Positions 6,186 through 49,406 of a DNA stretch of 64,000 nt are shown piece after piece. The notes under the pieces were generated by a model, which had not been told where the DNA came from, searched no databases, and saw only the letters and a list, made by a program, of their open reading frames with translations. Made by a program: the position numbers and the translations under genes. Source of the stretch: Trichoplax sp. H2 (Eukaryota); assembly GCA_003344405.1 (NCBI GenBank), contig NOWV01000123.1, forward strand, positions 1 to 64,000. Direction: 5' to 3'. How positions within the stretch are numbered: position 1 is the stretch's first letter; every line of letters starts with the position of its first letter.

Positions 6186-8845
6186 ATAACCAATAATTCA
6201 TTTGAATTCTTTATTAATCAGTCAGTGACTACATGTAAGAGTATCTTCACGAGCTTTAAATTATAAGTAAACACTTTATTTATCATATTTAAAAATGAAT
6301 CATTAACGGTATCTCAATACTATTGTTATGGTTTCAATTAAAACGCTTGCGTAAAAATTAGAGCACGTCTTCAGGATATTATCATATTATCAGGAAATGA
6401 AATATAAATACAAAAAAACAGATCTTGTCATAATTTGCTAATAATTCGATAAACTAATTGAAAATATTTATGTTTAAAAATTCAATCGCTAACGGTCATA
6501 TCACATTCTATCAATGTGCTTCCGTAAGATAAAGATATATTATTATAAATATTGAACTAATGTTAACGAAATCTTTTTGATGCTATTACCATTACGAAAT
6601 CAAAGCTATACTTCTCTTTCATCCTTTTTACTTCCTTTTATCCATTACCATAACATAAAATTAAAGCTACCTTAAGAACTATGTCACCACTTACAATATT
6701 TAAATGTTTATTATATTTTAATAACAAATCTTCTATGATCTTGGGAAAATACTTTTAAAAGATCGGAATAAAAGGCAAGTCATCTTGCATAATGAAATAA
6801 CAAATTTTTATCGTGCAATCCTGCCGATTCTAATTTATGATTTTATTATATCTCTCTTTTATGATAAGAAGAAATTCAATAAAGAATTACAAATTTAATA
6901 GATTGGTATTAGAAAGACTAATTAGGGTGTAGCTTTCACAGACCATTTACTCATTTCTCTCTCAGCTCAAGTCTGTAGATAGCTATTATCATAGCGCATG
7001 TAAGTAATTAAATTCTCACATGTTGAGCTGAGCTCATACTAACCGAATTCAGACTAAAATGGCTGACTTATTTACTAAGATTGCTACTCTATATAGCGGA
7101 CCTGCTTGAACTAAAATATCGTAAAGAGGCTCTAGAGCAGCTGCTGCTATTTCCTCAAAAGTACTCTTTGTATGTGTGTAGCAGTTTCAGCTAATTACAG
7201 TAGTAATTGAAGTATGGCAGCATTAAGACGTAGAATAGTCTACTATACTTATAAGATAATTTCATGATTGCTGATGATGAAACGGTGTAATTATACTATT
7301 CTTACAATGTGTGTATATACAGCCACAGTAGTCGGATATGTGAGGCGATGTTTTTGTGCAGCGTCTTGATATAACTGTTAGATAATATGGAATTGGTATC
7401 GGGAGACGAAGTCGATTATCCGATTTATCGTAGGCGCTTTCGACTGTTATTATGAGGGAAGAAAAGTGGATTCTTCTCTTGTCAAGCGTTCTATTAATAA
7501 ACGGATATTTTTAAGGTTAAACACGGTGTTTGTCTGATCTTGTGTCATGTTAGAGATTTACTCAATTTTAATAACTCAGATTTTGAGTTAGACGATTGCG
7601 AATCTAAGGGATTATAAAACCCAAGCACTACATAATTTGGCGCCGCGAGTAACGTAGTTATTCTGTGTCATAGATACTGCACTAATCTTCGTACTTTTGA
7701 GGAGGGAGGGAGCGTTATGGATTTATTAAAACGAGCACTGCACGGCATATATGACTATAAAATAGAGAGACAAATAGGCTAATTACGAACATCTAATACC
7801 CAACAAAATCTCATACAGAATTAACTTAAAAGAGACTTTTGATATTTATGTACCTTTCATCGATAAAATTTGATAACTTTATAGTCATAAATTTGATATT
7901 GTCCGTAAAATACTTCCTTTACAGCATCCTTTAGATCTGGTACTGTCAACTCTCATACTTTGATTAACAAATTAAATTTTTGTGTTGCAATATTCTTTAA
8001 TTAACTATTAATAATAATTATAATCGTCGCAACTATGAAACTTTATCAATATTGGGGCAATCTTGTACGTCTGATTAATAAATCGTTAGATATGTTAAAT
8101 ATGACTAATTAGCGGAATTATTGCACTAATCATATTCTATATTTCGATACTGTCCTAATGAGTCATTCTATTAGACTATTTATCAATTAATTGATATAAC
8201 GTAAGTCGATATAAAAATACGTACTTAGCTATTAGTCCAGTAACTATGATATCTCGTGGGCAATCTTTAAGTGTTTAAATACTGTCTTGACCATCTGATT
8301 TACGATCTGGGGTTTAAGCTTGTATGTATACAGCGGAATATTATCTCGATTAAAGAATCTATTGATACCATAGCTTGAGCAACATCCTTAAAAGTCATAT
8401 TCTAATCCTGTCCTAATTAGACAATCTATTACTTGTCATATGTGTAAGGTCAGCTCTTTAAATAATAGAACACTGACTCAATTAGCAATCTATTTTAAAA
8501 ATCTCGAGGTCAATCTTCAATGCTAGTATGCTATTTTGGTCATTCAATTTATCATTCGCGATATCTCAATACGTATCTTTCGAATCGGTTTTATAATATC
8601 ATCTTCATCAGAAGATCAATTTTATAATAGGTTCATCAAGATTAATTCTTTACATATAGAAACACTATCTGGATTAACAAACCTATTACGTACACTATCT
8701 CAAGGTCAATCCTACAATATTGAAACACCATCTTGATTATTCAATTCATTACTTATAACATCTACATTCAAAACGTCCATTTTCGAAGACTGCTTGATTT
8801 AATGATTCGAGGGCATTCCGTTTATTTTACCTTGTAAGGTAGAAA

Positions 8846-10823
8846 ATGGATACGCCGAAATCAGTTTGCAGGACCGAGGCCATCTATAGAAATAAGGATA
8901 TTGTTAATGTTTTCTTTACAATGATTGAAGAATGCAATGGCGATCAAAACACAGTTCGTCGCTATCGTTGTAGCTGCGGAACAATTCGCAAGCAAAATAC
9001 TCGTTATGGCTACACTAATTTAATCAATCATATTTACCGTAGTCATGTAGATTGGCGCGATGTCATGGCTTCAGTTTATGGCTACTATACTTCCAAAGAT
9101 AACCGAAAATCCATTTCCAATCAATTCCTTAATAATGCTTTTGTGTGGATTGAATGGATAGTAATGGAAAATCGAGAAATTTGGCTATCAGAAAGTAAAT
9201 GGACCAAAAAAAATACAATGTTAAAAGATGTTTCCATAACAATTATTATAAAATACATTGCACTACTAGCAAATGAAGTTGAAAAGATTTTGACGCAAAA
9301 TTTATCTGATCGCTTAGGCATTGTAATAGATGATAAAGTAGATGATTCTAGTCAATACATTGCAATTTATGCCTTCAATTCACAGCAAAATCAAGAACAA
9401 GAAAATCCAGAAAAACATCCACAACTCCATTACTACCTATTAGATATATTACATCCAATTGTTCATGACTTATCGACAGAAAACTTCCGTAATTTAATCT
9501 GTTCCATCCTGCACCGTTATTCCAAAGATTTCAGTTGCATTTCCTATTTTGTAGGTGCAACATGCGAGAAGAATAAAGCCCTTGCTGAAAGTATCGGTAA
9601 ACCGTTAATTGCTTGTGCATGTTACCGTTTAAACTTAGCTATTAAACACTACCTAGGTGAAGAACAGTCCTTAATTAACCGTCTATTAGTCTTTATGACA
9701 AAACTAAACAATACCAAGATGATGGCATCGTTACAAAGAACTGGAAATTTGGCTGTCATATTAAGTAAGACGATGCAATGGTCATCCACCTTTCAAATGA
9801 TTAGTCATTATTTCGAGTTAAAGCCCTATTTAGACCTTCAAGATNNNNNNNNNNNNNNNNNNNNATTACTTATTACTTCTGTGAACACATTGTTCTGCAC
9901 AGAGTCTACAACAAGTATAATTAGACTACTAATAATGTTATAATTACCCCATAGTTAATAAATAAATGTTGTTGCCAATTAATAAAATCTTAATTACTAT
10001 TTACCAAGGCTAATGCCACAATTAATTGATGGAGTCTATACTCCGTCACAACCGTCTATTAGTCTTTATGACAAAACTAAACAATACCAAGATGATGGCA
10101 TCGTTACGAAGAACTGGAAATTTGGCTGTCATATTAAGTAAGACGATGCAATGGTCATCCACCTTTCAAATGATTAGTCATTGTTTCGAGTTAAAGCCCT
10201 ATTTAGACCTTCAAGATCCTGAGTTAGCCAAGTTACTGCCATCGCCTAAAGACGATGTTAAGTTAACGGAAAAGATGAAAGATTTAGCAGCATTTGAATC
10301 AGTCTACCACAAATTACTCTACTCGCCAGATATTGATCATAATACTTTACGACAATTATTTGACGCCTTGATCCGACAATTCCCTCAACTCGACCTCTAC
10401 CTAGCCGCAGATTCAGTGCGTGTTTATAGTGTTGCTTTTGAAACAGGAATTGCCAAAATTATTACGGGACAAGAACCGAGTTTGACAAAAGATGAACAGG
10501 AGGTTTGCCAACCCTTTAGAGTTACAGACGATACTGCGGATAAATCTGCTATGGATTCTATTATAAATGATAACCTCTCGTTTGCTGAGAAGGTCTTGTC
10601 AAAGCAAACATCGAAGGTAACGAAGTCTTCCGCATATGAAGATGTATCTTATATACCAGTTATGTCCACTGTAACTCAGCAATTAACCCGTAATAATATC
10701 ATTGATCTAACTAAGAGCAATGATGTCATGAATCCCATTTACTTACGGTGTATCTTTCTAAAGCTGAATCGCCGTTTGTGGGATTTACCATTACTCAAGA
10801 AAGTAGTTCACAGATCAACTTAA
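8846..10823 (+). CDS. Intronless BED-type zinc finger / hAT-transposase-derived protein (about 534 aa when 8846-9844 is joined to 10218-10823 across the gap); catalytic residues degenerate
   Basis: N-terminal YRCSCGTIRKQ...GYTNLINHIYRSH (CxC...HxxxH BED-like). hAT-like motifs GIVIDD, YFVGATC, CACYRLNL and QWSSTFQM, plus a C-terminal dimerisation-like segment (IPVMSTVTQQL...LKLNRRLW). The two ORFs overlap by a near-identical 167 bp (9678-9844 vs 10051-10217). Confidence 0.85.
9865..10050 (-). mobile_element. Probable terminal fragment of an LTR-like element inserted in one allele of the hAT-derived gene
   Basis: Unrelated sequence after the gap ends in ...ccgtcaca (reverse complement TGTGAC, the same start as the element at 49407) exactly where the transposase sequence resumes. 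Confidence 0.55.
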
Positions 10824-19100: not shown

Positions 19101-22100
19101 AACAATGATTGCAATTTAGAGAAATTTTCCGATACTTAAAGCGCCATATTTGAAATGATAGAAAGTGTTACACTGATTATATGATATCGAAGTACAATCA
19201 GAGTCACTTCCCATTTACTCGTAACACAATGTTACATAAAAATTATACCCACACTTACTTCATTCACAACGATTAATTTGCTCTTATAAGCCGTCATAAA
19301 TAAATTAATCCTATTAATGTTGATATTGAATTGTCCTGTTAGCTTCAGTAAAGGCCGCACATTTTGTAGACCTGCAGCTGTATTGCAATGTATAAATACC
19401 ATTCAAGAAATCCTTTCATAATATAAAATCGAGCTCGATCTGCAGTAAATAAGAGAAAATTTAGGAATTCAATCTCTTACCAGAATTATTTAGGAATAAT
19501 AAAGTCGGAAAGGTATGGATACCAAATTGCGTGATCAGCTTACTAAATAAATTTCGAAGGAATGAGATAATTAATTTACTAGATGGAAACATCAAAAATA
19601 TGCGAAAAAGACTGTAATTTAATAACATTTAGAGAAATGAAGCATTGTATCATCAATAGATTAAACTTCTTGAATTAAAGATAATTTTACTAGGATTGCT
19701 TTTTAATGACATTGTAGATTCATAAGCTAATACTGTTATATGATCATGCCGCAATTGATGATTGTGAGATGAAAGGAAAAACTAAAATACATGGAAAGAC
19801 AATAATAATCTGAAGATATGCTGGTGCCTACTGAGTCTCATATTAAATCACTTTCTAACAGCATCTAGCCGTAACCCAATTTCTCGTAGGATTACTATTG
19901 TTAATGCATCTTAGATAGTAATGCTAGCACATAAAACTCAGAAATGCGAATCCTGTTGGAATCTATTAAGTCGATGTAAACTGATTAATCCATCGGCTTC
20001 GGAGGTATAATAACATCCTTAAAGATGAAAAACTGCCAGTGAAAATAATTTAAATAGATTTAAATCAGATGCGAACGTATTTAGAAGGAGATACTCAATA
20101 TCAGATAGTAGCTATATCTCATTTCCCATAATTTGTTAATTCGAAATCAATGGATCAGATAGGTGCTAAAAATTGGTATAGCTACATAAAGGAGAGTAAT
20201 AGTAGCGTGCATAAAGTTTATTAAAAGAAAATTTCCATCAAGAATCTTTAAATACCGTAATTTTAAAAGAGCCTTATTAACTGACGACAATAAAAGATAA
20301 AAATGATTAGGATACCTTCAACTAACTGAGTAGCGTTTATTTTAACTTAGATTTAGCTTTAAGAATCGATTACAATACAGATCAGTTAACGTTTCCATTA
20401 ACTTCAGTACCTTCCATCTTCGTTCAGGTGGTTAACGATATAGAAGTGCAAGCTATCTTTCCATCTAGCTTGTGCCTGTCAGATTCAATAAAAACTTTGC
20501 AGTTATAATAATAGCAATGACGTGTCTTAGGTGAGCTAAATGATATTATACTATCTATGTACCTGAAATAAAACGTTATCTACTATCTTGGGCTCATGTA
20601 ATCCAGTAAATGCCAGCAATGTTACACCTTTCTTGGAGAATATTTTATCAATATTGCCTATTGTATTGGCCTTTAAACTTCTCTTAAAAGCTTTCGACTG
20701 TCGTATGAGTTCAAAAATAATCCAAATAAAGGATTAAAGTTGATATTGCCTTTATTACAATGCAACCTTAAGTACTTACCATATTCATCAAATACTGGTG
20801 AAAATGGTTCTTTGCATATTGATATTTTGTGTTGTTATAAACATTAGGAATCATTAATCCGATATGGCATGCCAGTGATGGGATAGTAGATGGCATCATA
20901 GAAATATCCGATACTTCAAGCTGTGTATAAATATAGGACATTTTTTTAATTTTTTAATTAATTAATTAGATATCGAATTACACAGGCATTATCTTTTTAA
21001 TGTATCGAATTTATACTGGTTTAAAAAGGATACTTCATATTATATGCTTATTCTACGAATATTACTACATCATACATGATCAAGTTCTACAATTCCATAG
21101 TTCCATCTTGCGTACGGCATTTCTAAAGAAATTTTCTTCCAAAATTCTGCGAATTTAGCGGATAACGCTGATTTCGTAACTATATCAATGAAGAAGACGA
21201 GAAATTTACCTATTACCGCATATTGATACAGGATTATTTAACACTCAATTGTATACTGAAGTTATGTTAAGACCTATTTCTATCACTGATGAGGGAATAC
21301 TTTCCGCATGATTTATAGATTTGATTTTAGAAACTACAGTAATAAGTAATTGTGTTGGCACCAGCAAATTAAGGAAGGCAATATTAGGAGAACGAAAATT
21401 ATGGCGAAATAATTTGCACTATAAATGTCAGCTGTCAAATTATATTGCTTCAATAAATCAAGAAACCTGGACACTTTTCAGCTACGATATCTGAAACCTT
21501 CATTTATTTCTAAAATGATTATGAAGTATACTTTATATCTATCCTTCTTTCTCCAAGCAAAGAACATATTAATGTATCTTACTTCGTTGCAACCTTATTT
21601 TAAATCCATACTGAATTCATTATATACGAGCATACGGTATAAATGCTTGTCGTAATATAGGCTTATCTTTTTATTACAAATGTTAAAGTAATTTCTTATG
21701 TTATTAAACTCTAACTCTGTCTCTACTCTTATCAAGAACTCTTTCTCTCTGCATTTTCCCGCTTTCTTTCCACACGTAAGCATGTTTAAGCAATTTCTAT
21801 GATCTTACAATCCAACTCGTATATGAAATATTAGCCTTACATCAGCGAATTCAAAATCTAAAATTGATTGCTCTCTGTATATTCGTGTTCCATACAAGTC
21901 GATCAGCATTTTTTAATTCTTATTTACGTAAAGCCAATATTATGACAATAAAATTGTTTCTCTCTCATTCCAATATGTCAGCTTTCCTTCCATTTACAAC
22001 TTGTTTACGCATTTTTTATGTTCCTGTAATCTAACACTTTCTTTATACACTAACTATTAACACTATGTCAACTTGCCTAATATCCATTTAACTTCCCTGC

Positions 22101-22622
22101 ACATATCTGAGTAAACTATTTTCTTGTAAACGTATGTTAATACGAATCTTATAATATTAAAACCTAACTCTCTTCTCACTCATTCTGCAATCATTGGCTT
22201 TTCCTCTGTACGTAACATGGTTACGTATTTCTTATAAATGTTATAACTTAATCCCATATCAATTCCTCTATCCACTCTCTATTTACAGATTAGATTTCTT
22301 CTGCACGTAATAAATTTATACACTTCTTCAAGATATTAGAATCTAAAATTATATCTAGCTCTGAAATTTCCACAAACGAGTATATCAACTTTTTCTGCCA
22401 CTACAATCTTGTTAACATCTTCGTTTACATGAAAAGCAATCAAAAATTGAACTTACCTCCTTGTTGTTTACGTATATATACTGCACATGTTGGCGTTGTC
22501 GTTCTGACATTTAGCACATGTGTTTTTAACTCTGAAATGGAAATTTTCGGCAGCTCAACTGTATAAGCGAGCTGAAAACTGAAAGCTATCAGGCCAATAA
22601 TCATAAATATTGAAGACGCCAT
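13117..22622 (-). CDS. Secreted/ER multi-thioredoxin-fold (PDI-like) protein, about 20 exons
   Basis: Exon 1 (22622-22457) encodes a signal-peptide-like MASSIFMIIGLIAFSFQLAYT. Phase-consistent exons follow at 21179-21076, 20920-20780, 20475-20411, 19542-19481 and 19371-19259, with further exons down to 13117. Trx-fold motifs: FGIHTFPTLLFL, NFKKEVL...FVVCFYAHWGQNI, VIFTKNDCKSC, NCDHDPLSCQRHGVSGFPSL. Ends ...HWVTTERF*. Confidence 0.85.
14191..14239. repeat. Near-perfect intronic palindrome (23-bp arms, 3-nt loop), mini-MITE-like
   Basis: accatggactattagaagaagac-tag-gtcttcttccagtagtccatggt; 21 of 23 positions are Watson-Crick pairs. Confidence 0.9.
17142..17557 (+). mobile_element. Putative older solo-LTR-like element (416 bp) in an intron of the thioredoxin-like gene
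   Basis: Starts tgtaagacagtgtaatattgtatt (similar to the family A start) and ends cctcaca. Flanks are CAGCT/CTGCT (4 of 5 match). TATATAA at 17407, AATAAA at 17505. Confidence 0.5.
21670..22350. repeat. Degenerate pyrimidine-rich tandem repeat (period about 220 bp, two related sub-units) in intron 1 of the thioredoxin-like gene
   Basis: A motif of the type ctctcattc...gctttcc...acgta(a)catgttta(c)g(c/t)atttct(t)at...aat(c)(c/t)aa recurs near 21790, 22010 and 22227, with related half-units near 21691, 22146 and 22321. Confidence 0.5.
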
Positions 22623-22702
22623 ATTGATTATAGCCGGTATACTGGTATATAATTGCCACTTGATGGTATCATCCGTGATTCCAGCTAGACTCAATTTCGA
22701 TT

Positions 22703-22760
22703 ACGCATGCGCCCGGCCTTAGAGCTTTCTTTCGCTGCCTTGGATCGATTGCCTAGCAAC
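22703..22760. promoter_or_regulatory. Candidate bidirectional promoter with an NRF1-like site and an RFX X-box-like site
   Basis: ACGCATGCGC (22703-22712) and ATTGCCTAGCAAC (22748-22760) lie in a GC-richer patch between the divergently oriented thioredoxin-like and kinesin genes. Confidence 0.55.
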
Positions 22761-24563
22761 CGAAAAGGAGGAAAGGCAGAGCCAACTCCTATCAACTAGT
22801 CATAATATTAATAGATCTCGATGGATAGAGACATTATAATACTAATATGCTTAATGTACATCATGCTGACTTGAGTAAAAGGGAAATTAAATCGTGTTAT
22901 ATGATACAAGTAACGACTAATTACCTCTACAGAAAGTAATATTGAAGAAAGAATTAAATTCTCTCTACAAAGTGCGATCACTGAATTGATCATTTGAGCC
23001 AATTACTTAACCTTTATTGTATCGATTCTAGCTAGGCAATAGCCAAGTCGCATGATGATGGAGTTAATGGTTTTTCAGGTATGTGGAATATGTGTGTAAA
23101 ACAATCAATCAAGACTGATAAACTAATTTATATGAATTCATCATACTCCGTAACATTAAATATATCACATTCAGATAGGTAAGAATCCTTAAAATAGCTC
23201 TATCTAAGCAATCCAAACATTACTTTAACCTATCAATTATATTCTATGCTATCTGCTAGTGTTACAAACGTATTATCACGAAAATAAATCATCAATTTAC
23301 TTTTGTACTCTTTGTATTTTGACTATAATAAAGTTCAGCGAAAATATCATTAACTCTTTTAGTAAAGAAGCTGATAAAGGTTAAATTAATTTCACAACTC
23401 TTAAGGAGCAATAAGTCAATAAGGTAATACTATAAATTAATTTTGAAAATCGTACAAATAAATAAATCAGAAAGCAGCGATTGTACTTACAGGCTAAAAT
23501 TCAATAATGTCGATGTCTATTTAAAAGATCTTACAATAAATAATAGTAAATTAATTAAACCTATCTACCAAGTTAGAATTAGAGATCATATTTTGTTTAC
23601 ATTAAGAGTGAGGTATGAATATATTAGGTTAAATATTTAACGAATTTAAGCACAGCCTGTACGTTACCGTATTTAGTACAGTATTTAGCAATAGTAGCGA
23701 TAAATATCATTAAAGTTTCGAAATTAATGTCACAGTTTCGTAGAGTTGCATATCAAGATCATTATAGGAATGCGAGGGTGATTGAAATCGATGCGTATCC
23801 AAGCATAGATTCTAGCGATTATTTTAAGATTAGTATCACTAACATACTCATAACATTATTAATAAAGCGAACATGTGAAACTGAAGATTAGAATTAATAT
23901 TACGGCATCAAATCCGCTGTTTACTTTTGTTTCAAAGGTAATATCGACTTGAAACTTTGCGGTCATGCTTAGTAAATACAATTATAGTTACAAACCAATC
24001 CTAATCTGTGCACTTAGGGTCTACTGTAATAAATCTGATATTTCAAAGAGAAAAATTCAAATATAATATACTAAATATTGAAGTCAGCCAATCTTATTTC
24101 GTTATAAAATACCATTTTGCTTGTAAATTGCTGTTATCTGTTAATGATTAACAAGATAGACAAATTAATCCATATAAATAATTTTTCTGACTAAATCTAT
24201 TTTAACTTATCTTAGATTTAAAGTCACTGCATTTCTAGAAAGAAAGCTCAGTACATGGCCTAGCTGCTTCTGCATACATAAATCCCTCTTGATAAAATGT
24301 TAGTAATTTACCGAAGCTGTTGGATATCGAGCTAATCCTGACTATTGGCTATAAAAAATTAAGTTTCAACCACGTTTAAATTTTGTTGAAGACTACATGT
24401 ATTGATTATACTTACATTCAAATCAGTCCGCAAATTGATTTACTTCCAATAAATTCAATACCAATCCTATCTTCGCAGATAATCGAAAATAGATTCGATT
24501 GCAACTTTTCTATCGTTAATCAAGAGGGCTTTATCACGATAATTACAACTGATTGAAATCGAG

Positions 24564-27500
24564 ATGTTTATTTCTAGTGTTGCCAAGATTCGGCCATCGA
24601 CGGAAAATGAATCTCCACCTTCATTACAGATTGAGGAAGATTCTATAAAAAGTAAAGAAACTAATGCCACTCATACCTTCAGCCGAATATATGATGCTGA
24701 TAGTCAACCCTATCATATCTATCGGGATGCTATATCACCTTTATTGGAAGACTTTATTGCTGGTTATAATGTATGTATTTTACTATTTGGTGAGACAGGA
24801 TCTGGCAAATCACATGCCTTCGCTGGTAATCATCATGGAGATTCAGTTGGTTTATTTCAGCTCATCATTGATGAGCTATATCAAGAGATTGCCACTTTAA
24901 AAACCAATAAAATTCGCGCTAGCTACGATCATGTAGATGGTAATGAATTTTTAGATCAAGCTAGGCCGTCATCAACAGCTAGTCAGCATCAACAATTACA
25001 ACTCCCTTCTGATGAGTATCATCAACGTCGACGATTATCGCAACAACGCACTTTACCACTTTCCCGATCCGGTCAGCGAGTTAAAGATGGATTTATTAAG
25101 ATATCCATGCAATTTTGCGAGTTATATAATGAAAAAATTCATGATTTACTGCAGCCTAAATCTACAACAGCTAAGACTTTGGAAATAAACGAGAGTGAAC
25201 AAAAAGGGATCCACATTCGTGGTATAACCAGCACTCCCATTGAAGATGCAACCCAAGGTGTCACATTATTTGAAGAAGCTTGGGCTAGAAGAATCAACGT
25301 AGACACAGAATTTGGTCCAAGTAATATTCGCTCATCTGCTATTTTAACTATAACACAGACTACGGTAAGATATTGGCGGTATATTCCCAGCTATCATAAC
25401 GATACGACTAGAGTAAAGTGCAGTTTGATATAGTATTTCAAATTCATGACTTTATTATCTTGTCAATTTATTATATCAATGCATTCACTCAAAATTCACA
25501 AACTAGAAAGGAGATGCTAATACCATACCCCATAAATCAAAATTAATGTTGGTTGAATTGCCTGGTGCTGAAAAATTGGCATCAGATCCCAATCATTTGC
25601 AAATGAGGGAAGGGAGCAATTTAAACAAATCCCTTATCCACTTTGCATTAGTAGTTAAGTCATTACTGGATGTGCACCATGTTCCTAATTATAAGTAAGT
25701 TAACTATCTCCATCGAGTCTTTTGTAAACCTGATAAGGCAATCATCTACAATTAAGTCTACTATGCTATTCTGCAATGCTATGGTCATAATTCGTTCTGA
25801 AAACGTTGTTTTCTTTGCCCATTTCTTTCCTCCACGCTGACTACGTAGCAAATCCAAATTAACTCATTTACTATCAGATGTTCTCGGCGGTAACTGCCAG
25901 ACTTTGCTCTATGTGACATTGAAGCCTTATGAAACGCCCTATCTACCGACAATTTTGAGAGCGTGCAACAAAATTTGCAAAATTATTAATTATCCAGTCA
26001 CCAATGACATCTACGCTCAGGTAGGGATTCAGTAAGATATAATCTCACGCTAGACTGTTATTAATGATAATATAAGAGAATGCTGCAGGATTGAACTCTG
26101 ATTTTACCTAATTTTATACCAAATAATTTATAATCTATTGCTTGGATACGCTATAATACATGAGTAGTTAACAACATTCTGAAGTAGGAGCAGCAGGCAT
26201 AGAAGTCCTCTATCAAAGATTGTTTTTAATATGAATAATCCTTCGTAGTACTAAGAATATGACTTATCTTTCTCTCTATATATATATAAAACAGGGTCTT
26301 ATTCGTCTATATCGATGCCAAATAATCAACTTGAGGGATAAAGTCCAAAATATAGAACTATCATTAGCTAAAGAAGTTGCTAATGTCAGTCATTTGCAAT
26401 CGATTGTTGATGAAAATGCAAAGAATAAGCGTTCTGAAAGCCGACAAAGTGATGATACTTCTAAAATGGAAGAAATGAAAGAACATATTAAAAAACTAGA
26501 TCAAGAAAATGTTAGTAATTTTTATTAGCTTAGAGATAATCTAACTCATAGTAAAAATTAAGAAATAGTAAATCTATTAACTATAACACATTTGAAAGTA
26601 GTGAATCTGTTAATAATCGCTATATTACATGCTACTGATTTGCAAAAAATGTTTCAATTTTAATTTTACTATGTCAATCTCGAAATTTTGAAATAATATA
26701 TCACGGTGTATATCTGTTATCCAGCTGCAGCTGCATGATCAAGTAGAAAAACTTACCGGTAAATTAGATCGCATGCAATCCAGGTATAATGAAGTTTTGA
26801 GAGCTAAATCTGTTATATCGTCGCAGTTAATGAAAAAGGATGAAGAAAAGAATAAGGTTAGGCATTAAATTATACAGCAAAAAATACAACGACAAGATTT
26901 CTACTATTTGCTAAATTTATTTTCTGAGTAAACTACTAACTGCAAATATAAACTTTACTTGGAACAATGCAATGTGTAACGTAGTTTAAATACAAAGAAG
27001 CTGTTGATTAATGTCCTGTAGCAGAGATTTCAGGTGTAAAATCAAGTACCAATCAAGACATTATCCGATATAACCTTGATAATTATTAAATCTATACTCG
27101 CTCCGGCAGAGATTCTTATGCTTCAATGCCAAACTTTCTTGAATAATTTACACGCGATATTAGGCAATTTGTTATTCAGTAACTTTATCTTTACTTTTAA
27201 TAACACTTCATCATTAACCTTTAAACTTTATTTAACGTAAAGTATGCTTACTTTTATTATGAGTTACAATAATTTTCAACAATAATCTTAAGTTTACTTT
27301 AGACAGTACACATACTCATACAGTAACAGTCAATCGATAAATAACACTTATTAATTAATCAATAATACAGATTTATCAAGCATTAATCGATACTAGGATA
27401 GAAGTAACCAATTTAAACGACCAAAAGGAAATAGAAGGATCTGCTGACAAGAAAATTCGTATCAATGAGTTACAAAATAAGTTAACGGATCAAACAACCA

Positions 27501-30500
27501 AAGCCGACAGGCTAGATAGAGAACTGCGTCATATTAAGCAAGAATTAAATCAAATAAAAGATGAACGAGAAGAATTAATAGACGAATATCGAACATTAAA
27601 AGCAAATTATCTTACTAAAGAAGCCAATGGGAGGTTAACTGAAGTAAGTAAAGACTTATATAATATTATTCATTTAAAAAGTAAGACTTTGTTTTAAATG
27701 ATGCTAATTAGTCTTTAACTAGTTTAGAAAGCGTTATTTAAAATTGAATCTGATACTTCTATTTAAAATAGCCCGAGAAAGTAAAAATTAAAGAACTACA
27801 AGAAAAAGATAGAACTCTAGAAAAAAGGGTCAATTAAATTTAAAATTGTTAAAGTCTAATTATTGACTATGAAGCAATAAGAAATGCTCAACTAATTTAT
27901 TAATATTTCCTATCACGATATAGGTTCGTCAGTCTTATGAGAAAACTATTGAGAAAATGCAAGATGAATACGAGGAAGATACTAGGATACTAAATCAAAA
28001 AATGTATGTAAGAGTAGCTGTTGAATATTTATATAGTTTTAAGATTAATAACTAAATCGTGGATAAATGTCTACTGCGAAATCATATAGGTATTCAATTA
28101 TGATGGTTTTACATAAAAATTCTGTAACATATTTTTCATGAGATATTATAGAATATCAATACTTATAAGAAGTATCTTTCTATTCAACCTATAAAACACT
28201 TACGAATGACAGGAAAATAAAATCTATATTACACGATATTGTTGATTTCAGTCTGAGCTTAGAAAGGGAATTAAGTCAGATTAAAAGAGATGTCGCACCC
28301 AATAATTCTCATGAAAAGGATAATCACAAGGACAATACTGTTATCGATTCCTCTGATATTGATGGCGACTCTAAAGATTATCAGCAGACTAAGGTAACTT
28401 AATGCAGCATATAAATGCTTTAACATCTACAAGACAAAAAAGTATAGATTGGCAATCATTTCTTTATTTTTATAATCATTTTGGCTCTATGCAATTAAAT
28501 CTTTATTCTCGCGTTTACATTTCATAAGTATCGTAAAATAACTAGAACTATTTCGAAGAAAAATCAGAAATAACCTCCTACTATATTACACGATTTATTT
28601 CGTATAGCGTACTTTTAAACTATTAATGAAATGAAATTTGGTCATTTCAGGAGTGGATTGAACTAAAAAATCAACAAGAAGAATTACTTGCGAATAATCA
28701 TCGTCTGAAAATTAAATTAGAAGAAGCAGAGCAAGAATATCGACAGCAACTAGCAAAATATGCTGATAATATAGCAGTTAGTCAATACTATTTTGGACAG
28801 TGTAATGTAAAATTAATGATTAATCTCAGTTATGAATAGTAAATTTCTCTCACTTGGACTAATCTCCTTCACCTAGAAATTAAGCAAGCGTTTAGACGAA
28901 GAAAATGGCAATCAAGCATCTTCAGCGACACTGAAAAATCACGTTGATCGAACTGTTAGTAAATTAGTTGAATCGTATGAAAAACAAGAAAGAGAAGCTA
29001 AACAGCACATAACCAATTTAAAGCAACAGTTAATTCGTGTCAACGACAAAAACCGACAATTACATATAGCTTACAAGTAAGCCAGTACATCTAGATAGAT
29101 TTTTCTATCAATCTGCAGACTAAAATAATCTACGATATACTCGTATTTATAATCTCAGTTTTACTCTTTATAATGCAGATGAATCCCTATAATATACTGC
29201 AGTTTGGCAGTCATTTGCATCACGCCAGCTTATAATTAATTCTAAAACTTGCTTCTATCAATTAGAGCTGCCAAAAATTCACTGAAACAAAATGATTTGC
29301 CAAATGATCTCCCACAATTGGATGAAGAACAATATGCTGTACGTTAGAAAAGCCTTTTGATCTGTATAAATTACCTTTAGTACAGCTTGACTGGTGTCAC
29401 AAAACAGCTTTGTAATAAAATAACGTAATGTACGATCAATAAGTCAATTCCTTGAATCACGTATCAAGGAACGATATCTGCTCTATCAGAAACACTTTTG
29501 CTCTACTAGCAGACTACACAAAGACTTAAACGCCTCGTATTTTACGTTAAACACTAAGTTTGAGAATTCTCTTTATTGTACGATATACTGCATTTATATA
29601 CTACTCCTCAATAGTTCATGAGTCATAGTTAATACAATTAACCTCGGAATCATTTACTGAATTAGATATTAATTTTAGCTACTGCTCCCTTAATGCAGAC
29701 AACAGTATTTAAGAATATAGACATGTAATGACTAATGCAGAATAGTCAGATTACGATATGTCCTATCACGGAACATTTCCATGATAATTTACAATCTACC
29801 ATAAGTAAATTACAATCACAAGGATTCGAACTGTAAGTAGATGATTTGCATTCCCTATTATAACTATTAATTTCAGTATGTGTATAAGTGTCGCTGTCAT
29901 AGAAAGTCAGTGCTATATTAAAACACAGTATATCCAAATTAGAAGTTAACTAAATAAGGATAGTCTAACAGAATTATCCTAACATAGTTATTTCTACTGT
30001 AATACAGTATTTAACACTGTAACAACTGGTGATTAAAATTTTCGTACATCTGCCTTACCAGTATAATTACACTCGTGCAATTTTAAAATATCAGAAATAC
30101 AAATATTTTAACTTATACCTTAATAAATTATTGCCTTAGATTATACTGATGACTATATTAATACTGCTATTATCTAGCCCTATGAAATAAGGCTACTGAC
30201 CCTCAGCTAGAGCATATCATGAAAGTTTGGATGTACTGTAATGATATCTCTTACCAATTTTGTAGATGTTTATCAACATATTATCAACATAATTATTGAT
30301 CCAATTAATATTTTTAGTTGATTTATATTATGATACACAAGCATTCAGGTTTAAATTATCAGTCAATATTAAAATTAACATAATTTATATATAAGCAATG
30401 CAAATATCTACGATCACATATTTTATAAATCTTAATAAGTTAGATAGTTCAGTCCATAGTGTTATTTAAGATTAATCGGTGTTTATCTGTATATTTTACC

Positions 30501-31335
30501 GGCTGTAAAGCTACAGTAATAATATATTCTGTAAGTCTTTGTACAAGGTAATTCATAAATTGAATTTCATATATTGTCGATCCTAGGTTTCTCCAGTTCC
30601 AGAAAGAGACGAAAATGATTCATTCGTTGGGTAAACTAGTAATCAATTAATATTTCACTGTAGAAGTGTGAAGTAGGATGATAGGCAATAGATTGATGAC
30701 GATGCTAGGACATTTAATAAGTCTTAGTCAATAACTTTTTCCATACCAATAGGCCAGGTTATTATGTAGAAGAAAGCTATTGGAACCTATTGAAAGAGCA
30801 AATTCACATTTTTACATCAACTGTCCTAACCGATCTAGAAAAAGAACGAGCAACCTTGCTATCGAAATATACTGTCGCCTCTGAAGAAGTTGAGCAATGT
30901 CATCAATACATTGAAACTCAATTAATCAAGTTAGTTAGCAGATATTTGAATACTTCTGTAGCTTTCTAGTAAAATAAATGTGCAATGTCCATTTCATTCT
31001 TTTACTATCAAAGTACTGCTACGTCTCCAGGCAGAAAGAAGCAAATATCATAGCAATCGTCTTTAAACATATTGCTGATGATATAACTTACCATAATTAA
31101 GATATAGTAAGTTACTGAAATTTATATTTTATTTTAATTACGGTACATTTTCAGATATCAGAAAGAAATTTTAAGGCTAAGGAAATTGATTAATGATTCT
31201 GGTGGTAACTCTGGATCGATAAAAGATTTTAATGAAACTCCTCGTCCACCAGGATATAGATCTAACCGCCAAGTTAATCCTCATAGCCAAAAGAAACGGA
31301 ATTTGTCTCCATCAACAACCAACTATGATAGCTAA
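24564..31335 (+). CDS. Divergent N-terminal kinesin motor joined to a CCDC78-like coiled-coil tail; start codon uncertain
   Basis: VAKIRP, FSRIYD, GYNVCILLFGETGSGKS (P-loop) and ELYNEKIHDLL in 24564-25364; ELPGAE and LNKSL in 25507-25694; KSKLTHLLSDVLGGNCQT in 25849-26020. Coiled-coil exons follow from 26295 to 31335, including KDEEKNKIYQALIDTRIEVTNLNDQ and SYWNLLKEQIHIFTSTVLTDLEKERATLLSKYTVASEEVEQCHQYIETQLIKYQKEILRLRKL. Confidence 0.88.
29395..30024 (-). mobile_element. Solo-LTR-like element, family A (630 bp), antisense in a kinesin-gene intron
   Basis: Termini tgtcac...gtaaca; perfect 5-bp TSD ACTGG (29390-29394, 30025-30029); reverse-complement homolog of 49407-50036. Confidence 0.92.
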
Positions 31336-31914
31336 TCTATAGTAAATAAATCTAAAATATCAAAACTTCAGAGTAAATTTTTAGCAACAATACCCTGCAA
31401 TTAACTTTTAGCTGAGCAATATAGAATTTTAATAATACGATTAAGCTATTCAGCAATGAGAATCAATAAAATTTAAAATTTTAAATGTTTATGCAAGATT
31501 CTGACCAAATTTTTGATCAAAAAATTGGCTGATAAAAGAATTATTTCTTGTATCATTACAACTATGTCTACTATAGCTTTCGTTTATCTACTTAAGCTAA
31601 CTTCGATAAATCATTCTATAGTAATTTATTTAAATACATTTATTTAGAAATAGGATGAAATCGCTATTACGATCTTTATTGCTTATTGAATGCTTTTTAC
31701 ATAATATATGTTAAATAAAATAATCCATACACTAATTTTAGTCTAGTCGGCTTCTAGAAAAATATTTTATAATATAAATATACGCGTGCTTATCAACATG
31801 TATTTTACTAACACATTTGAGCTTTATAACAAAAATTACTAGAATTGAAAAACGATTAGAATTATTAGAATAAATGTTTTGATGTCAGATACTGGCTATA
31901 AATATGTTGGCGCT

Positions 31915-32355
31915 TGTCACGGTACGAACTACCGTGAAGAAATAGATATCTAAATTTGGTTAATATAATATAATGATATTATATTACAACTAGTTACTTA
32001 CAATAGGAATTACTCTAATTATAAATGTGTTACAGTAAATTTAATGCTGTGCTGTAATGTGCTCTGAAATGATTCTGTGAATGGACATATTGTAGTCTGA
32101 CTGTGAAAAATTAGTTAGTAGATGTTCTCACCCAAGTATTTTTATAAGATGACTTGTGAATGTTAGCTGCTGTAGAAGGGTATATAAGCCCGTCAGATAT
32201 CTGAATAAAGCAGTTCTCAATTGTATAGTTGTTCTAACGTAGAATCAAAGGCGTCTAAATTCTTGTGAGGTAGTTAAGGGATACTGAATCCCAGAGACTA
32301 TAGTAATTTAGAGATTTGTTTTACGTTATCCTTGTCACGAAGCTGGTTTGTGACA
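31915..32355 (+). mobile_element. Solo-LTR-like element, family B (441 bp)
   Basis: Termini tgtcac...gtgaca; perfect 5-bp TSD GCGCT (31910-31914, 32356-32360); TATATAA at 32181, AATAAA at 32204; homolog at 59593-60035. Confidence 0.93.
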
Positions 32356-34656
32356 GCGCTACTTATAGAAGTTATTACAAAATTTTGTTTAAAAATCTAT
32401 TGGAATTGTAGGAAATGATTGTATTATTTGAGTGATAAACATGTTATTCAACCTGTTAGAATTTTACTAGAAATTCGTACATTAGATCTATAGACTGTCC
32501 TTTTATAGCAGCTTTTGGTTACTTCATGCTGCAATTAGCCACATCTAACTCAAAGTAGCTAAGAAGAATCCAATAAAATATAGCAATGCGTTAATCTTTT
32601 AAAATTATTACTTTTAACAGTGTTTTATAGACTTCAGAACTTGTTTTATTAACAAATTTACTAATATAGGCATATATTACGGTCAAATTTACCCATTCGA
32701 TTTTTATATTCTTAGAAATTTATCAACTTGCGAAGCTCAAAAATCCAGCAGCAAATCTCAAATATATAATCTGTCATTTTCTGAATCTATCGTTTCTCAA
32801 ATGGTAAATAAATGTGCCAAATACCACTAAAGTAGAGATTGAATCGTATCACAATACATGCACCTCAGGATTCTTTTAAATTATTTGTATTATCAATACG
32901 CTTTAGTTCCAATGGATCCACAATATATATGGTAGACAACGTATTGCTATTACGCTAGTACACACCATGCAAGTTCTAAATATAATGATAGTACCTTTAC
33001 TCTGGTGTTCACTTGAAAATAAATAAGCAGTTCATCTTCCTATTATTTACCAGTACAATATTCAATTAACCTAGCACTCGATAATTAAGGTCGACAGAGA
33101 CACTCATACAATTATTAATAGATGATACAATATATATTTAATACATAAATGAGCGCAATAATTTTCAATATCACGTGGCTAAAGGATTATTCGATCTATT
33201 TAGACCAGAATAAACTCGTAACATCAGTTTAAATCTGAAAATTTCAGATATGGCTAATGTAAGGTATTGATTTGTAATTACAGTCGCAGTAAATTTTCAA
33301 CAATTTCAATCTAGCTCAATACTAAATTGATTCATTTTAGTAGCTATAATGCAAGTTTTAGGGTAAAAATTGACTTCTATTTAGTATGTTGCATCTTTTT
33401 ATTATGGCAATACGACTATCAAATAGATAAATGGATATACTATAGCGGAAGATCTCATATAAATTAGTACTGGCTATAAGATTAATCTTAAAACTGAAAT
33501 GAAGACTCTACAATAGGGTAGAAATTTCATTTCCAGAATAGGATATAAATTTATGCGTTAATTAAATCGATTCTATCACCAGATAAAGCGCATAAGTTAT
33601 AAAATTTTTGAAGTATCGACTTCAACTTGACAATTACATTTTTCGCTATTTCTACATGTCATATCGACGATTAGTGCCTTGACTTTGAATTAGATGACAG
33701 AATACAGTCAAGCATATGATGATAAAGTCATTAATCCTTTAACTAAGGCTAAGTTCAAATATGACCGCAACTTATTGATCGCAATCAATAAAATTAGGTT
33801 AAACCGGTATCCAACAGGCTCATCATAAATTTTAATTAATCGATTATTTTCAAGTATGAGTATATGATAATCGATTTATATTCAATTAATTTTGAGCTCA
33901 AACAATCTTACTAAATGGGTTATTGATGTAAAAATTACAACTGGTATTTGTTTCCATCAAATAAGTGTTATAACTCTATGCTCTTCAGGTTATACTTTTT
34001 GCCGGTACCAAATGGATTATTATTCTGTTGATAATAATCATCAGCAACGTATCTTCATGAAATGGACTATTTATGTGAAAATAACATTAGAACTATTGGT
34101 CATTATTTGTTAGCATGACTAGATTAGTATTCAATTTTCAACTAATTTAATTAAACTATATTGTATTGAAAGTAAATTTCGATTCATGTTCCAATATCAC
34201 CAATAAAGCTGAGCTCCAACTTATCTGATTCCAATAATATTTGAATGATGATAGTATATTAGTCCATTGATTAGCATATTTGATCCTTTAAAATATCGAA
34301 TAAAGTTGTTTTAATCTACTAACTAGTATGAACTATAACCAAGATTGATCCTGGAAGATAGATTAATTTATCAGGTCAACGTATGATACGGCTTCCACGA
34401 TTGTATCATCGAAAACTTAAGAGGTAAAACTGAACAATTTTGCTACTGTACTATCCTAAACAAATTCATCACTAGAAGATTGTCAGATGGATAGTAAATA
34501 TCGATTGCTTTGGTTATATCCAGCTTGAGTTAGTGGTACGGTATGAATTTTCTAAATTAAAATTTTAATCATTTGAAATGGATGTGGATAAATCTATATG
34601 GGTTTAATGTCTTGATAGCTGCCAACAGGATAAAAAAGGTCATTAAACTATTATTT

Positions 34657-48400: not shown

Positions 48401-49406
48401 GTGTCATTTCAAATTCTGGACAAGTTAAGAGTATTAGTAGGTACTGGATTCTTGGTTCCCCACTAGACTTTCTAGGAAAATTACTTGAATAAAATCTTGT
48501 AAGTCCATCTCCTGGGACATCTAATTCAATAAATAGCACTAAGGTACGAAATTGAAAAGATGTCTGCTACAGTGAGTTACTACTTAATAAAGCAGACACT
48601 ATCATAAATTTCGTACTTTAGTGTTATAATTTGATAAATTATATAAATGATATTACAACATTTATGATTTAATATGATGGTATTTGACCAAGTAAACATG
48701 CCTGTTGTCAAATCTAAGTTTATAAATGGGTATATCTTATGCTTTATTTATGCCACGTACCGGCTATCTAAATAATAGCACTTGTGATACGGATACTTCG
48801 AAATGAAATAATTAAGAGAAGTAATAGCTTTTCATTTTTAATCACATCGTATCATAATTATAATAAGTCTGCTAGCGAATTCATGATTGTCTAAAAAACA
48901 CCAAGAGCAATTCTAAACAATGAAATAGTAGATTACGCATAAGGTATATTAGCTAGGCGTTTCTAAATAAGCCTATAACGTTTACCTTGTAATCAAGATA
49001 ACGTTATCAAAATCGATGAGTTTATACATTTTATTAATGAAGATATAATGCTAATATCACGAAAAATCTGACAATGTAATTTCACATTACGATAATAATT
49101 TACCCAATATTATTTCACCCTTAAAATCATACGTGTAAAAGTATATGATTGTGCTCTGTATAAGTAATTCTAGCTTGAATAAAATATTTGCAATACTATA
49201 AATGTATATAATCCTTTAATATGCTAAATGTGCTGGTATAATTTGAAAGCCTTTTTTTCTCGTAAAGTATCATAAGGTAATCGAATAATATGAGATATAT
49301 TGCATTATTACATAGTACATTATTAATTTAATCTACGAAATCTCAGTTTAAATTTCGCATCGATTCCTCCACTTATTTTCAGATAGTTAGCATTTAAATA
49401 TATAGT

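Follow-up and report, generated by a model that had tools for sequence, protein, structure and literature searches.

Ccdc78 of Xenopus, mouse and human is described at the cilium's outermost distal tip, binds Ccdc33 and bundles microtubules in vitro (PMC12796433). The same source reports that Xenopus Ccdc78 also marks deuterosomes and apical foci, and that, in isolated cilia, human CCDC78 is concentrated at the two ends; a reduction of centriole number upon CCDC78 knock-down is cited in PMC10522465. The human gene is named as a candidate for centronuclear myopathy-4, which links it to disease (PMC11394131), and a survey from 2021 describes CCDC78 as “mostly limited to Vertebrata” (PMC8470418).

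The ciliate Tetrahymena thermophila has a protein of 1,066 aa, I7LVY1, which carries a CCDC78 domain and is described as a “kinesin motor catalytic domain protein”; its level is at least fourfold lower in FAP256-knockout cilia, and it appears in the ciliary proteome as a candidate of the tip cap (PMC10522465), where it is proposed to bind the central-pair microtubules (PMC12796433, PMC10522465). Its likeness to the protein studied here, a kinesin head followed by a CCDC78-type region, is known from these published descriptions, its rank as a distant Ccdc78 orthologue is taken from the statements of the same two papers, and it was not among the 30 matches to the Trichoplax tail that were checked by name. 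The combination of a kinesin with CCDC78 is thus an architecture already known, both from RefSeq entries named “CCDC78-like” and from the Tetrahymena relative as presented in PMC12796433 and PMC10522465.

The window analysed in this study is a stretch of 64,000 nucleotides from Trichoplax sp. H2 (GCA_003344405.1, contig NOWV01000123.1, forward strand). It harbours a gene on the (+) strand, the coding sequence of which comprises 2,862 nt in 15 exons, from the ATG at 24564 to the final stop-codon base at 31335, and CDS mapping assigned GT..AG borders to all 14 introns. The encoded protein of 953 aa corresponds letter for letter to the database protein P0001, which its Trichoplax sp. H2 record calls “Chromosome-associated kinesin KIF4”. 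Very probably, the gene instead combines an ancient kinesin head and neck with a long CCDC78 (DUF4472) coiled-coil tail, and its product would act by the ciliary tip mechanism outlined below.

The original prediction held that the kinesin exons splice in frame into a coiled coil, and 26020|26295 is indeed the boundary between exons 3 and 4, in phase 0. Spliced contigs were available from four runs, each of a different study (X5, X6, X8 and X11), where X11 is recorded as RNA and the other three are presumed to be RNA; as the contigs are devoid of introns, spliced RNA is implied for the presumed-RNA runs as well. GT..AG skips were present for 13 of the 14 introns (13 in X5, 13 in X8, 10 in X11 and 7 in X6), and a single X5 contig of 3,627 nt covers the whole mRNA, from before 24300 to 31569, the latter position implying 234 nt or more of 3' UTR. 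Read-through or an erroneous gene model could in principle have united a kinesin gene with a neighbouring CCDC78 gene, an annotation or assembly artefact that would agree with the absence of the 26020/26295 intron from the contig joint table and with a record of RNA for one of the four runs. However, the intron is missing from that table because a repeat at 26262-26297 was skipped, and in three of the four runs (X11, X5, X6) one contig covers 25849-26021 and then 26298-26510, with two letters between them, which is exactly the offset that an ambiguous G|G at this splice junction predicts. The check proposed for RNA data thus turned out positive, the frame is open, and the same order of head and tail recurs in 14 tail matches and 6 profile matches from unrelated genome projects, which leaves an artefact scarcely credible. 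The gene is real, transcribed and spliced as modelled, and head and tail share one mRNA.

The head is encoded by the first three exons. Exon 1 (24564..25364, aa 1-267) begins with the start codon, scores 119.9 bits against Pfam Kinesin on its own and contains the N-terminal KIRP (24585-24596), the P-loop GETGSGKS (24789-24812, aa 76-83), a Trichoplax-specific insert of approximately 64 aa after helix alpha2 (24900-25091) that is not found in 13 relatives, and a degenerate switch I, NIRSS, which was located within 25320-25340 by HMMER alignment to a PDB kinesin. Exon 2 (25507..25694, aa 268-329), the joint of which to exon 1 at 25363/25506 is seen in all four runs, encodes the L11/alpha4 region and the switch II variant ELPGAEKL (25555-25578). 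Exon 3 (25849..26020, aa 330-387) is the final head exon and covers alpha5-alpha6, with SKLTHLLSDVLGGNCQT, and the neck-like NYPVTND (25988-26008). The complete protein matches Pfam Kinesin (PF00225) over aa 21-361 with 191.5 bits, compared with a cut-off of 29.3, and kinesin motors in the PDB match the head at 1e-32 to 1e-24. The nearest neighbour of the Atlas model of aa 1-384 (TM 0.82) is a 230-member, mostly mollusc “CCDC78-like” cluster, with 100% of its members carrying Kinesin and 94% carrying DUF4472.

The P-loop pattern GxxxxGK[ST] is present in Trichoplax and kept in 20 of 23 family proteins (N-terminally truncated fragments excluded). At switch I, the HMMER alignment places Trichoplax GPSNIRSS opposite NATSSRSH of the PDB kinesin, and NxxSSRSH is not found. 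This is a feature of the whole family: none of 28 sequences carries S[ST]R[ST]H, compared with 18 of 20 other kinesins, and the asparagine of NxxSSRSH is a glycine throughout the 21 aligned members. The arginine and the adjacent serine of NIRSS are retained in Trichoplax and eight others of these 21; in six members, among them shark and amphioxus, Y, Q, H or D stands in place of the arginine. Compared with the DxxGxE of switch II, Trichoplax ELPGAE preserves the glycine and the glutamate and has a glutamate in place of the aspartate; the family signature is xLPGAEKL, and the aspartate is present in 11 of 21 members. Conserved family-wide are also the L11/alpha4 motif REG..LNKS and the neck-like NFPVxND followed by coiled coil.

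Since the family lacks a canonical switch I, we expect the head to be atypical and perhaps immotile, and to hold on to microtubules; against this reading, the strong conservation of the P-loop suggests that nucleotide matters. Some catalysis by the Trichoplax head is conceivable, given the retained arginine and serine of NIRSS. The “motorised” form of CCDC78 that had been proposed is confirmed with regard to the kinesin head; a working motor is not established in a family without canonical switch I. Other tip kinesins accumulate at the tip by plus-end-directed walking. If the Trichoplax protein likewise walked to axonemal plus ends and delivered itself or a Ccdc33-type cargo to the ciliary tip, its accumulation there would be explained, and the conserved parts that a dead head would hardly need (P-loop, glycine and glutamate of switch II, REG..LNKS, neck with its coiled coil) as well as the arginine at the switch I position in nine aligned members would find a ready use. 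Yet the universal loss of SSRSH, the glycine in place of its asparagine, the replaced arginines and the variable switch II aspartate speak against such a motor, and head-less Ccdc78 of bony vertebrates still reaches the tip (PMC12796433). A walking motor is thus a serious but rather doubtful alternative to a holding head.

The tail starts with exon 4 (26295..26510, aa 388-459), the 5' edge of which is the head/tail junction and in which the coiled-coil stalk begins. Exon 5 (26725..26856, aa 460-503) contributes the first portion of tail block A and the beginning of the DUF4472 region, the core of which lies in exon 6 (27371..27643, aa 504-594; Pfam match aa 498-589). Coiled coil continues in exons 7 (27772..27828, aa 595-613) and 8 (27924..28003, aa 614-640), and a segment conserved among relatives, NEEL..ELLNLVNAK, is absent near exon 7 of the Trichoplax gene. 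Exon 9 (28252..28393, aa 640-687) encodes an acidic/polar Trichoplax-specific insert, followed by the conserved tail block B, represented by the EYRxRLxKY motif region in exon 10 (28651..28776, aa 688-729) and continuing in exon 11 (28877..29076, aa 730-796). Beyond exons 12 (29266..29338, aa 796-820) and 13 (30587..30630, aa 821-835), the conserved C-terminal block C (W..L..Q...FT...Q..LE.ERA.L) occupies exon 14 (30753..30929, aa 835-894) and ends with YQKEILRLRKL in exon 15 (31155..31335, aa 894-953 plus stop), which also encodes a low-complexity C-terminus. Two peptides on which the CCDC78 likeness had originally been based are both present in the spliced product: DEEKNKIYQALIDTRIEVTNL at aa 498-518, across the exon 5/6 junction 26856|27371, and the C-terminal peptide at aa 845-905, across the exon 14/15 junction 30929|31155.

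The proposed resemblance of DEEKNKIYQALIDTRIEVTNL to DUF4472 (Pfam PF14739, curated cut-off 26.6 bits) agrees with the position of the Pfam match, which is weak in this protein: the domain reaches 19.8 bits with the full-length sequence and 24.1 bits with a tail piece of 209 aa, both below the cut-off, 29.1 bits on the raw unspliced exon-6 reading frame, and 78-115 bits in relatives (shark 114.8, amphioxus 114.2). As the Trichoplax score lies below the cut-off, membership in the CCDC78 family rests on family alignments and trees. A phmmer search with aa 388-953 against 1.84 billion representatives returned 71 matches at E<=1e-3, 26 of them at E<=1e-10, and 19 of the 71 also match the head of P0001. 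Pfam detected DUF4472 in 46 and Kinesin in 19 of 72 proteins (the 71 matches plus P0001). Of the 30 tail matches checked by name, 17 are listed as CCDC78, CCDC78-like or DUF4472; no informative name is attached to the remaining 13. Three tail blocks (q444-600, q685-803 and q835-912) occur in the same order in headed and head-less relatives. BLASTP aligned the Trichoplax protein end to end with a shark “CCDC78” that retains the head (1e-94, q1-907 vs s1-902), and by its tail only with bowfin CCDC78 (4e-33, q447-938 vs s10-570), the latter alignment including the block of the C-terminal peptide. In the proposed comparison of the tail with CCDC78, all informative names among the matches checked are CCDC78 or DUF4472, and these alignments show three collinear blocks of homology between the Trichoplax tail and vertebrate CCDC78.

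The database name implies a different identity, namely a chromosome-associated kinesin of the KIF4 (kinesin-4) type, the CCDC78 likeness of which would be noise from coiled-coil composition. Apart from the NCBI name, the top sequence match in the PDB, a KIF4 motor at 2.8e-32, fits this identity. However, that match is just a few bits ahead of kinesin-8 and KIF11, and the tail has no match in the PDB sequence search. Moreover, the head falls into the clade of CCDC78-type heads (support 100), apart from a KIF27/KIF21-like group, and lacks SSRSH and DLAGSE, both of which are present in the sampled kinesin-4-type KIF27 and KIF21A-like proteins; noise would likewise not account for collinear matches in three blocks, the informative names of which, among those checked, are all CCDC78 or DUF4472, nor for a tail tree that follows the species tree. 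Head tree, switch motifs and tail matches in effect refute the KIF4 identity, which we regard as highly improbable. The misleading name is attributable to fast evolution, as reflected in a long branch, a weak DUF4472 and lineage-specific inserts.

The association of a kinesin head with a CCDC78 tail is widespread. The survey of kinesin plus DUF4472 architectures that the original prediction had suggested identified it in cnidarians, echinoderms, hemichordates, amphioxus, spiralians and sharks, and beyond animals in one choanoflagellate, one glaucophyte and one cryptophyte, altogether in no fewer than 20 proteins of full or nearly full length (14 full-length tail matches and 6 further profile matches). 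Headed RefSeq proteins named CCDC78 or CCDC78-like from sharks (Chiloscyllium, Stegostoma, Hemiscyllium), Branchiostoma, Lytechinus, Asterias, Patiria, Acropora, Nematostella and Ruditapes share with Trichoplax the order of head, neck, DUF4472 block, block B and C-terminal block, a similar length (866-946 aa vs 953) and the motifs GExxSGK[ST], LPGAEKL and NFPVxND without SSRSH. The Trichoplax protein differs from them by the 64-aa head insert, the KIF4 name and the absence of one conserved stalk segment. In a profile search, family members scored at least 355 bits and all other kinesins at most 238 bits. A Stentor kinesin (P0123, 61% query coverage) was considered as a ciliate member and rejected, as both SSRSH and DLAGSE are canonical in it and the tree places it outside the clade of the family.

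Placed in a kinesin tree, the Trichoplax motor groups with CCDC78-type heads, and all 15 family heads are separated from 20 other kinesins by one branch with a support of 100. The careful tail tree of 30 rows supports Metazoa at 97/98 and vertebrates at 100/100, broadly tracks the species tree and is congruent with the head tree. Within Metazoa, the placement of Trichoplax is weak (82/54) and on a long branch; with a tail branch length of 2.38 compared with a median of 0.71, it is the most divergent animal member. The vertebrate clade of the tail tree unites headed sharks with head-less ray-finned fishes and tetrapods, such that the motorless CCDC78 is nested inside a motor-bearing clade. Given this nesting and the occurrence of the fusion in Metazoa and three non-animal lineages, the fusion is ancient, and the earlier suggestion of a lineage-specific event is to be rejected. 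An apparently single-copy, ancient eukaryotic gene, with the Trichoplax sp. H2 copy as its orthologue, is part of the explanation that we consider very probable as a whole.

An ancestral ciliary kinesin that lost its motor in vertebrates had been put forward as the other possibility, and this is supported except for its extension to all vertebrates, as four carpet-shark species retain the head in proteins of 916-946 aa. The head is absent from all eight sampled bony vertebrates, where CCDC78 begins 0-34 residues from the tail boundary. The lack of a head in Lottia and Ciona may stem from faulty gene models, and head absence is clear for the sampled bony vertebrates only. By the topology of the tail tree, these eight CCDC78 proteins are nested head-less derivatives, whereas sharks keep the head. 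Bony-vertebrate CCDC78 shares with Trichoplax the three tail blocks, including the C-terminal block ending in EI.RLR, and orthology in the tail tree. It differs by the missing head, and by a function that was shown by experiment, compared with one deduced by likeness for Trichoplax.

By analogy with Ccdc78 and the Tetrahymena kinesin-CCDC78, we infer that the Trichoplax protein has its role at the motile cilium's distal tip. With the P-loop, the glycine and glutamate of switch II, the microtubule face (alpha4/L12/alpha5) and the neck retained, and SSRSH lost family-wide, the head would bind nucleotide and microtubules and hydrolyse ATP poorly, and would thus hold rather than walk. The tail may provide a second site for binding microtubules and partners, and the whole protein would then cross-link and stabilise the tip microtubules. 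A likeness of mechanism only would exist to KIF7, an immotile ciliary-tip kinesin of the kinesin-4 family: in both, the head would grip microtubule plus ends at the tip and help to organise a compartment there rather than transport cargo; KIF7 belongs to another family with an unrelated tail, and the heads are separate in the tree (with KIF27 as kinesin-4 stand-in). The ciliary-tip role of KIF7 goes back to He et al. 2014, as cited in PMC10522465. For the tail, the tail-type Ccdc78 of Xenopus is described to bundle microtubules alone and to partner with Ccdc33 (PMC12796433).

The original prediction placed CCDC78 in the context of centrioles and deuterosomes, a framing that is now dated. Biogenesis of centrioles or basal bodies, the role initially assigned to vertebrate CCDC78 at deuterosomes, could still be the main one in Trichoplax, rather than a function at ciliary tips, and the deuterosomal and apical foci in Xenopus, the enrichment at both ends of human cilia and the knock-down effect, all mentioned above, point in this direction. 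Trichoplax epithelial cells, however, bear a single cilium each. The deuterosome protein DEUP1 is, to our knowledge, restricted to vertebrates. It is presented as a paralogue of CEP63 in PMC8470418, and the Tetrahymena relative is found in the ciliary proteome as a tip-cap candidate (PMC10522465). We consider a main role in centriole biogenesis improbable and favour the ciliary tip.

In a wider perspective, headed CCDC78 might represent an ancient, cilium-linked family with a switch-I-less, nucleotide-binding and microtubule-holding head that predates the split of animals, glaucophytes and cryptophytes, and human CCDC78 would then be a beheaded kinesin; we offer this as a tentative proposal, to which we assign somewhat less than an even chance. 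The family may correspond to Kinesin-17, which Wickstead et al. 2010 found only in organisms that build cilia, traced by inference to the last common ancestor of eukaryotes and listed with a function then unknown (PMC2867816). The range of Kinesin-17 fits a family present in animals, a choanoflagellate, a glaucophyte, a cryptophyte and, as reported, a ciliate, and serves only as a lead. On the bony-vertebrate stem, once cartilaginous fishes had branched off, the head would no longer have been needed, because the tail, together with CCDC33, binds and bundles tip microtubules unaided. If so, the headed proteins of Trichoplax, Nematostella, sea urchin, amphioxus and sharks constitute a natural with/without experiment on the anchoring of the tip cap. 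Contrary to the 2021 survey, CCDC78 is, by the present data, the head-less remnant of a kinesin that spans protists to sharks, in which head and tail evolved jointly as one gene. These results correct the annotation of the Trichoplax gene, which is not KIF4, date the loss of the head to between cartilaginous and bony vertebrates, which is testable, and point to tractable headed species in which the contribution of the unusual head to the ciliary tip can be studied; the general picture drawn earlier for Tetrahymena stays unchanged.

Searches of the surrounding DNA yielded little. The RFX X-box consensus (at most one mismatch) had 23 matches in the window compared with 18.7 expected, none of them between 16952 and 37449, and the region upstream of the start codon contains no X-box-like site; in the absence of an X-box near the gene, the promoter lends no support to ciliary regulation. 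Rfam identified no RNA family in 22000-34000 at E<=0.01, and Pfam no family in five flanking ORFs of at least 110 aa. Intron 12 contains a non-coding dispersed repeat of 653 nt (29387..30039), of which a second, inverted copy, 91% alike, is located at 49392-50044. Contig depth reaches approximately 5000 at this repeat, and many loose contig ends cluster at 30021-30029.

The window DNA is AT-rich and eukaryotic (GC 27-35%), and the first head exon of the gene is 100% identical to a single database protein, P0001 (953 aa; head approximately aa 1-387, tail aa 388-953), which is recorded as "Chromosome-associated kinesin KIF4 [Trichoplax sp. H2]" with precomputed Pfam assignments to kinesin-type families only. 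By scripted mapping, P0001 returns exactly to the plus strand at 24564-31335, with 15 exons, GT..AG borders at 14 of 14 introns and a CDS of 2,862 nt, stop included. Its N-terminus lines up with those of its relatives and an in-frame stop lies 21 nt 5' of the ATG; the protein is therefore regarded as complete. This exact mapping bears out the coordinates, both peptides and the 26020|26295 junction of the original prediction, whose central observation, a kinesin head spliced in frame to a CCDC78-type tail, is confirmed as a whole and whose interpretation is supported with refinements.

Contigs of four sequencing runs from four studies were mapped on window 24300-31700; X11 is recorded as RNA, and X5, X6 and X8 are only presumed to be RNA. 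GT..AG skips are listed for 13 of the 14 introns (13 in X5, 13 in X8, 10 in X11 and 7 in X6), the head/tail intron being missing from the table of joints because the mapping passed over a repeat at 26262-26297. Yet the same contig crosses this junction in X11, X5 and X6, spanning 25849-26021 and then 26298-26510 with two unplaced letters between; since exon 3 ends in ...CAG|gta and exon 4 starts with GGT, the edges 26021 and 26298 are the expected footprint of 26020|26295, and the transcript joint between motor and tail is thereby found in RNA. Record 4 of X5 (3,627 nt) extends from 5' of 24300 to 31569 and represents the entire mRNA. Identity to the window is 95-99% for most RNA contigs; some runs therefore derive from close relatives, among which the splicing pattern is conserved. 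At about 40 listed sites, mostly transitions, the RNA contigs differ from window 24397-31416; these differences and the overall likeness suggest that the material labelled organism A and organism B came from close relatives of the sequenced strain or represents haplotypes other than its own.

DUF4472, the domain of the CCDC78-type tail, scores weakly in P0001 (19.8 bits for the whole protein and 24.1 bits for the tail piece, with 29.1 bits for the unspliced reading frame of exon 6; Pfam cut-off 26.6), and homology of the tail was therefore tested directly. A phmmer search with the tail (aa 388-953) as query and 1.84 billion representatives as targets yielded 71 matches at E<=1e-3, 26 of them at E<=1e-10, which split into two length classes sharing three query blocks (approximately aa 444-600, 685-803 and 835-912) in the same order. 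The P0001 head is also matched by 19 of the 71, and a Pfam scan of these proteins plus P0001 finds DUF4472 in 46/72 and Kinesin in 19/72. Names were looked up for 30 of the matches: 17 bear the name CCDC78, CCDC78-like or DUF4472-domain protein, and 13 are uncharacterised or unnamed; another coiled-coil family is named in none of the 30, and thus all informative names speak for CCDC78/DUF4472 and against a tail akin to unrelated coiled-coil proteins. With BLASTP, P0001 matches bowfin CCDC78 in the tail only (4e-33) and a shark "CCDC78" from residue 1 to 907 (1e-94).

The headed form, comprising head and tail in 785-1,125 aa, is found in hemichordates (Glandiceps, Ptychodera), carpet sharks (two species of Chiloscyllium, Stegostoma, Hemiscyllium), amphioxus, echinoderms (Lytechinus, Asterias, Antedon, Patiria, Acanthaster), an annelid (Owenia), a bivalve (Ruditapes), a flatworm (Macrostomum) and cnidarians (Nematostella, Sanderia, Acropora), as well as in the choanoflagellate Salpingoeca kvevrii, the glaucophyte Cyanophora paradoxa, the cryptophyte Guillardia theta and one MMETSP transcript. 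An Atlas cluster named CCDC78-like (230 members, mostly mollusc) carries Kinesin in 100% and DUF4472 in 94%. The head-less form (376-572 aa) occurs in bowfin, three teleosts, one frog, two birds and one marsupial, and also in Lottia (P0012) and Ciona (P0039), each represented by one old gene model; in the full-length alignment the head-less proteins start 0-34 residues from the head/tail boundary. The lineages neighbouring the latter two are headed (Ruditapes and the mollusc cluster for Lottia, amphioxus for Ciona); either Lottia and Ciona lost the head independently, or their old models are truncated.

A careful maximum-likelihood tree restricted to the tail alignment (30 rows, 582 columns, rooted on three non-opisthokonts) tracks the species tree, with the choanoflagellate followed by Metazoa (97/98), the cnidarians (100/98), Trichoplax, the bilaterians and, within chordates, amphioxus and then Ciona; the Trichoplax branch is long (2.38) and weakly placed (82/54). 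The vertebrates (100/100) unite headed sharks with head-less ray-finned fishes and tetrapods, the three-way split of which is not resolved in this tree. The head state changes three times on the tail tree: once inside vertebrates, once in Ciona and once in Lottia. In a quick head tree, all 15 family heads lie beyond a branch of length 1.11 with support 100, apart from 20 other kinesins including kinesin-3, -4, -5 and -14 representatives, and their internal order is that of the tail tree. In profile searches, family members score at least 355 bits and other kinesins at most 238 bits. From the congruence of the two trees and this gap it follows that head and tail have been one gene since before the sampled lineages split. 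The original prediction had left two histories open, an ancestral ciliary kinesin that lost its motor in vertebrates and a lineage-specific fusion. The latter is contradicted by headed forms in animals, a choanoflagellate, a glaucophyte and a cryptophyte. The former is favoured, as bony-vertebrate CCDC78 is head-less within the tree of a headed family, and judged from these sequences it is a derived, beheaded form; the loss is to be narrowed, however, since the bony vertebrates sampled are head-less but carpet sharks are headed.

The head of P0001 is recognized by Pfam Kinesin at 191.5 bits (aa 21-361). As PDB motors of several families score nearly level (KIF4 114.8, kinesin-8 about 113 and KIF11 about 108 bits), the name KIF4 has no special support. 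The KIF4 identity is rejected; the gene belongs instead to a known, ancient kinesin-CCDC78 family, within which it is divergent and mis-named. Odd switch motifs emerge from a table that compares 21 family members with 10 canonical kinesins and from a separate pattern count. The P-loop is retained in 20 of 23 family proteins (N-terminally truncated fragments left out), the exceptions being Sanderia and two probably defective models. The canonical SSRSH switch I is present in 0 of 28 family sequences, compared with 18 of 20 other kinesins, and its position reads (D/E)(F/Y)G.... instead. The aligned arginine is R in 9 of the 21 members including Trichoplax (NIRSS), K in 5 and a gap in 1; the other 6 members, shark and amphioxus among them, have Y, Q, H or D in its place. 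Switch II reads xLPGAEKL instead of DLAGSE, with D at the first position in 11 of 21. The register is borne out by a HMMER alignment to a solved kinesin, and column conservation ranks among the highest in the L11/alpha4, L12/alpha5 and neck-like segments.

In kinesins, the gamma-phosphate is sensed by the serines and the arginine of switch I, residues that also shut the active site. Given this role and the missing canonical switch I, we expect a head that would bind nucleotide and microtubules and turn over ATP slowly or not at all. That the family head is a working motor would agree with its retained P-loop, yet such a motor would have to run without the canonical switch I, and we consider it rather unlikely. 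The P0001 head also carries an insert rich in Q, R and S (about 64 residues; aa 113-176, window 24900-25091) that follows helix alpha2 and precedes the next strand. The insert is specific to Trichoplax, being absent in 13 aligned relatives, and probably forms a disordered loop.

The fused architecture is already on record in RefSeq names and precomputed Pfam architectures and, for Tetrahymena, in two papers. According to passages of the first, the 1,066-aa Tetrahymena kinesin I7LVY1 "also contains a CCDC78 domain", is at least fourfold lower in FAP256-knockout cilia and is proposed to bind central-pair microtubules in the cap (PMC10522465); a passage of the second describes the kinesin motor of the Tetrahymena relative as "absent from vertebrate Ccdc78" (PMC12796433). 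I7LVY1, considered here by its published description, and P0001 both combine a kinesin with a CCDC78 region. By orthology the Trichoplax protein may reside at ciliary tips and act there as a two-site microtubule binder, through head and tail. Kinesin-17, described in 2010 as a cilium-restricted family then without known function (PMC2867816), is a candidate identity of the kinesin-CCDC78 family. The listings and selected passages of the literature searched contain no statement that the head is kept in sharks and missing in bony vertebrates or that switch I is missing family-wide, and no placement of Trichoplax "KIF4" in this family. One survey has CCDC78 as "mostly limited to Vertebrata" (PMC8470418), wording that the spread of headed and CCDC78-type proteins contradicts.

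In the surroundings of the gene, an Rfam search of window 22000-34000 found no RNA family, five long flanking ORFs matched no Pfam family, and no X-box-like site was seen 5' of the start codon. Unusually long stop-free frames occur on the plus strand at 3711-5033, 8843-9943 and 10026-10823 (440, 366 and 265 aa; no Pfam family), the latter two connected by a 168-nt direct repeat (9677-9844/10050-10217). Intron 12 harbours a 653-nt dispersed repeat (29387-30039; no Rfam match) with a 91% alike inverted copy at 49392-50044. RNA contig depth over 29387-30039 reaches about 5000, and many different flanks end at 30021-30029; the dispersed nature of the repeat accounts for this depth and the loose ends, which in turn indicate an abundant element with transcription or co-transcription at other sites of the genome. 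Just 3' of the gene, a set of 60-317-nt repeats (31915-32354) has inverted copies, 95-98% alike, 26-27 kb off at 58559-60035, which lie in a block of nested direct repeats. These direct repeats (148-300 nt, 99-100% identical) occupy window 55788-59416, and the block has the look of an element that was duplicated recently or has a tandem structure.
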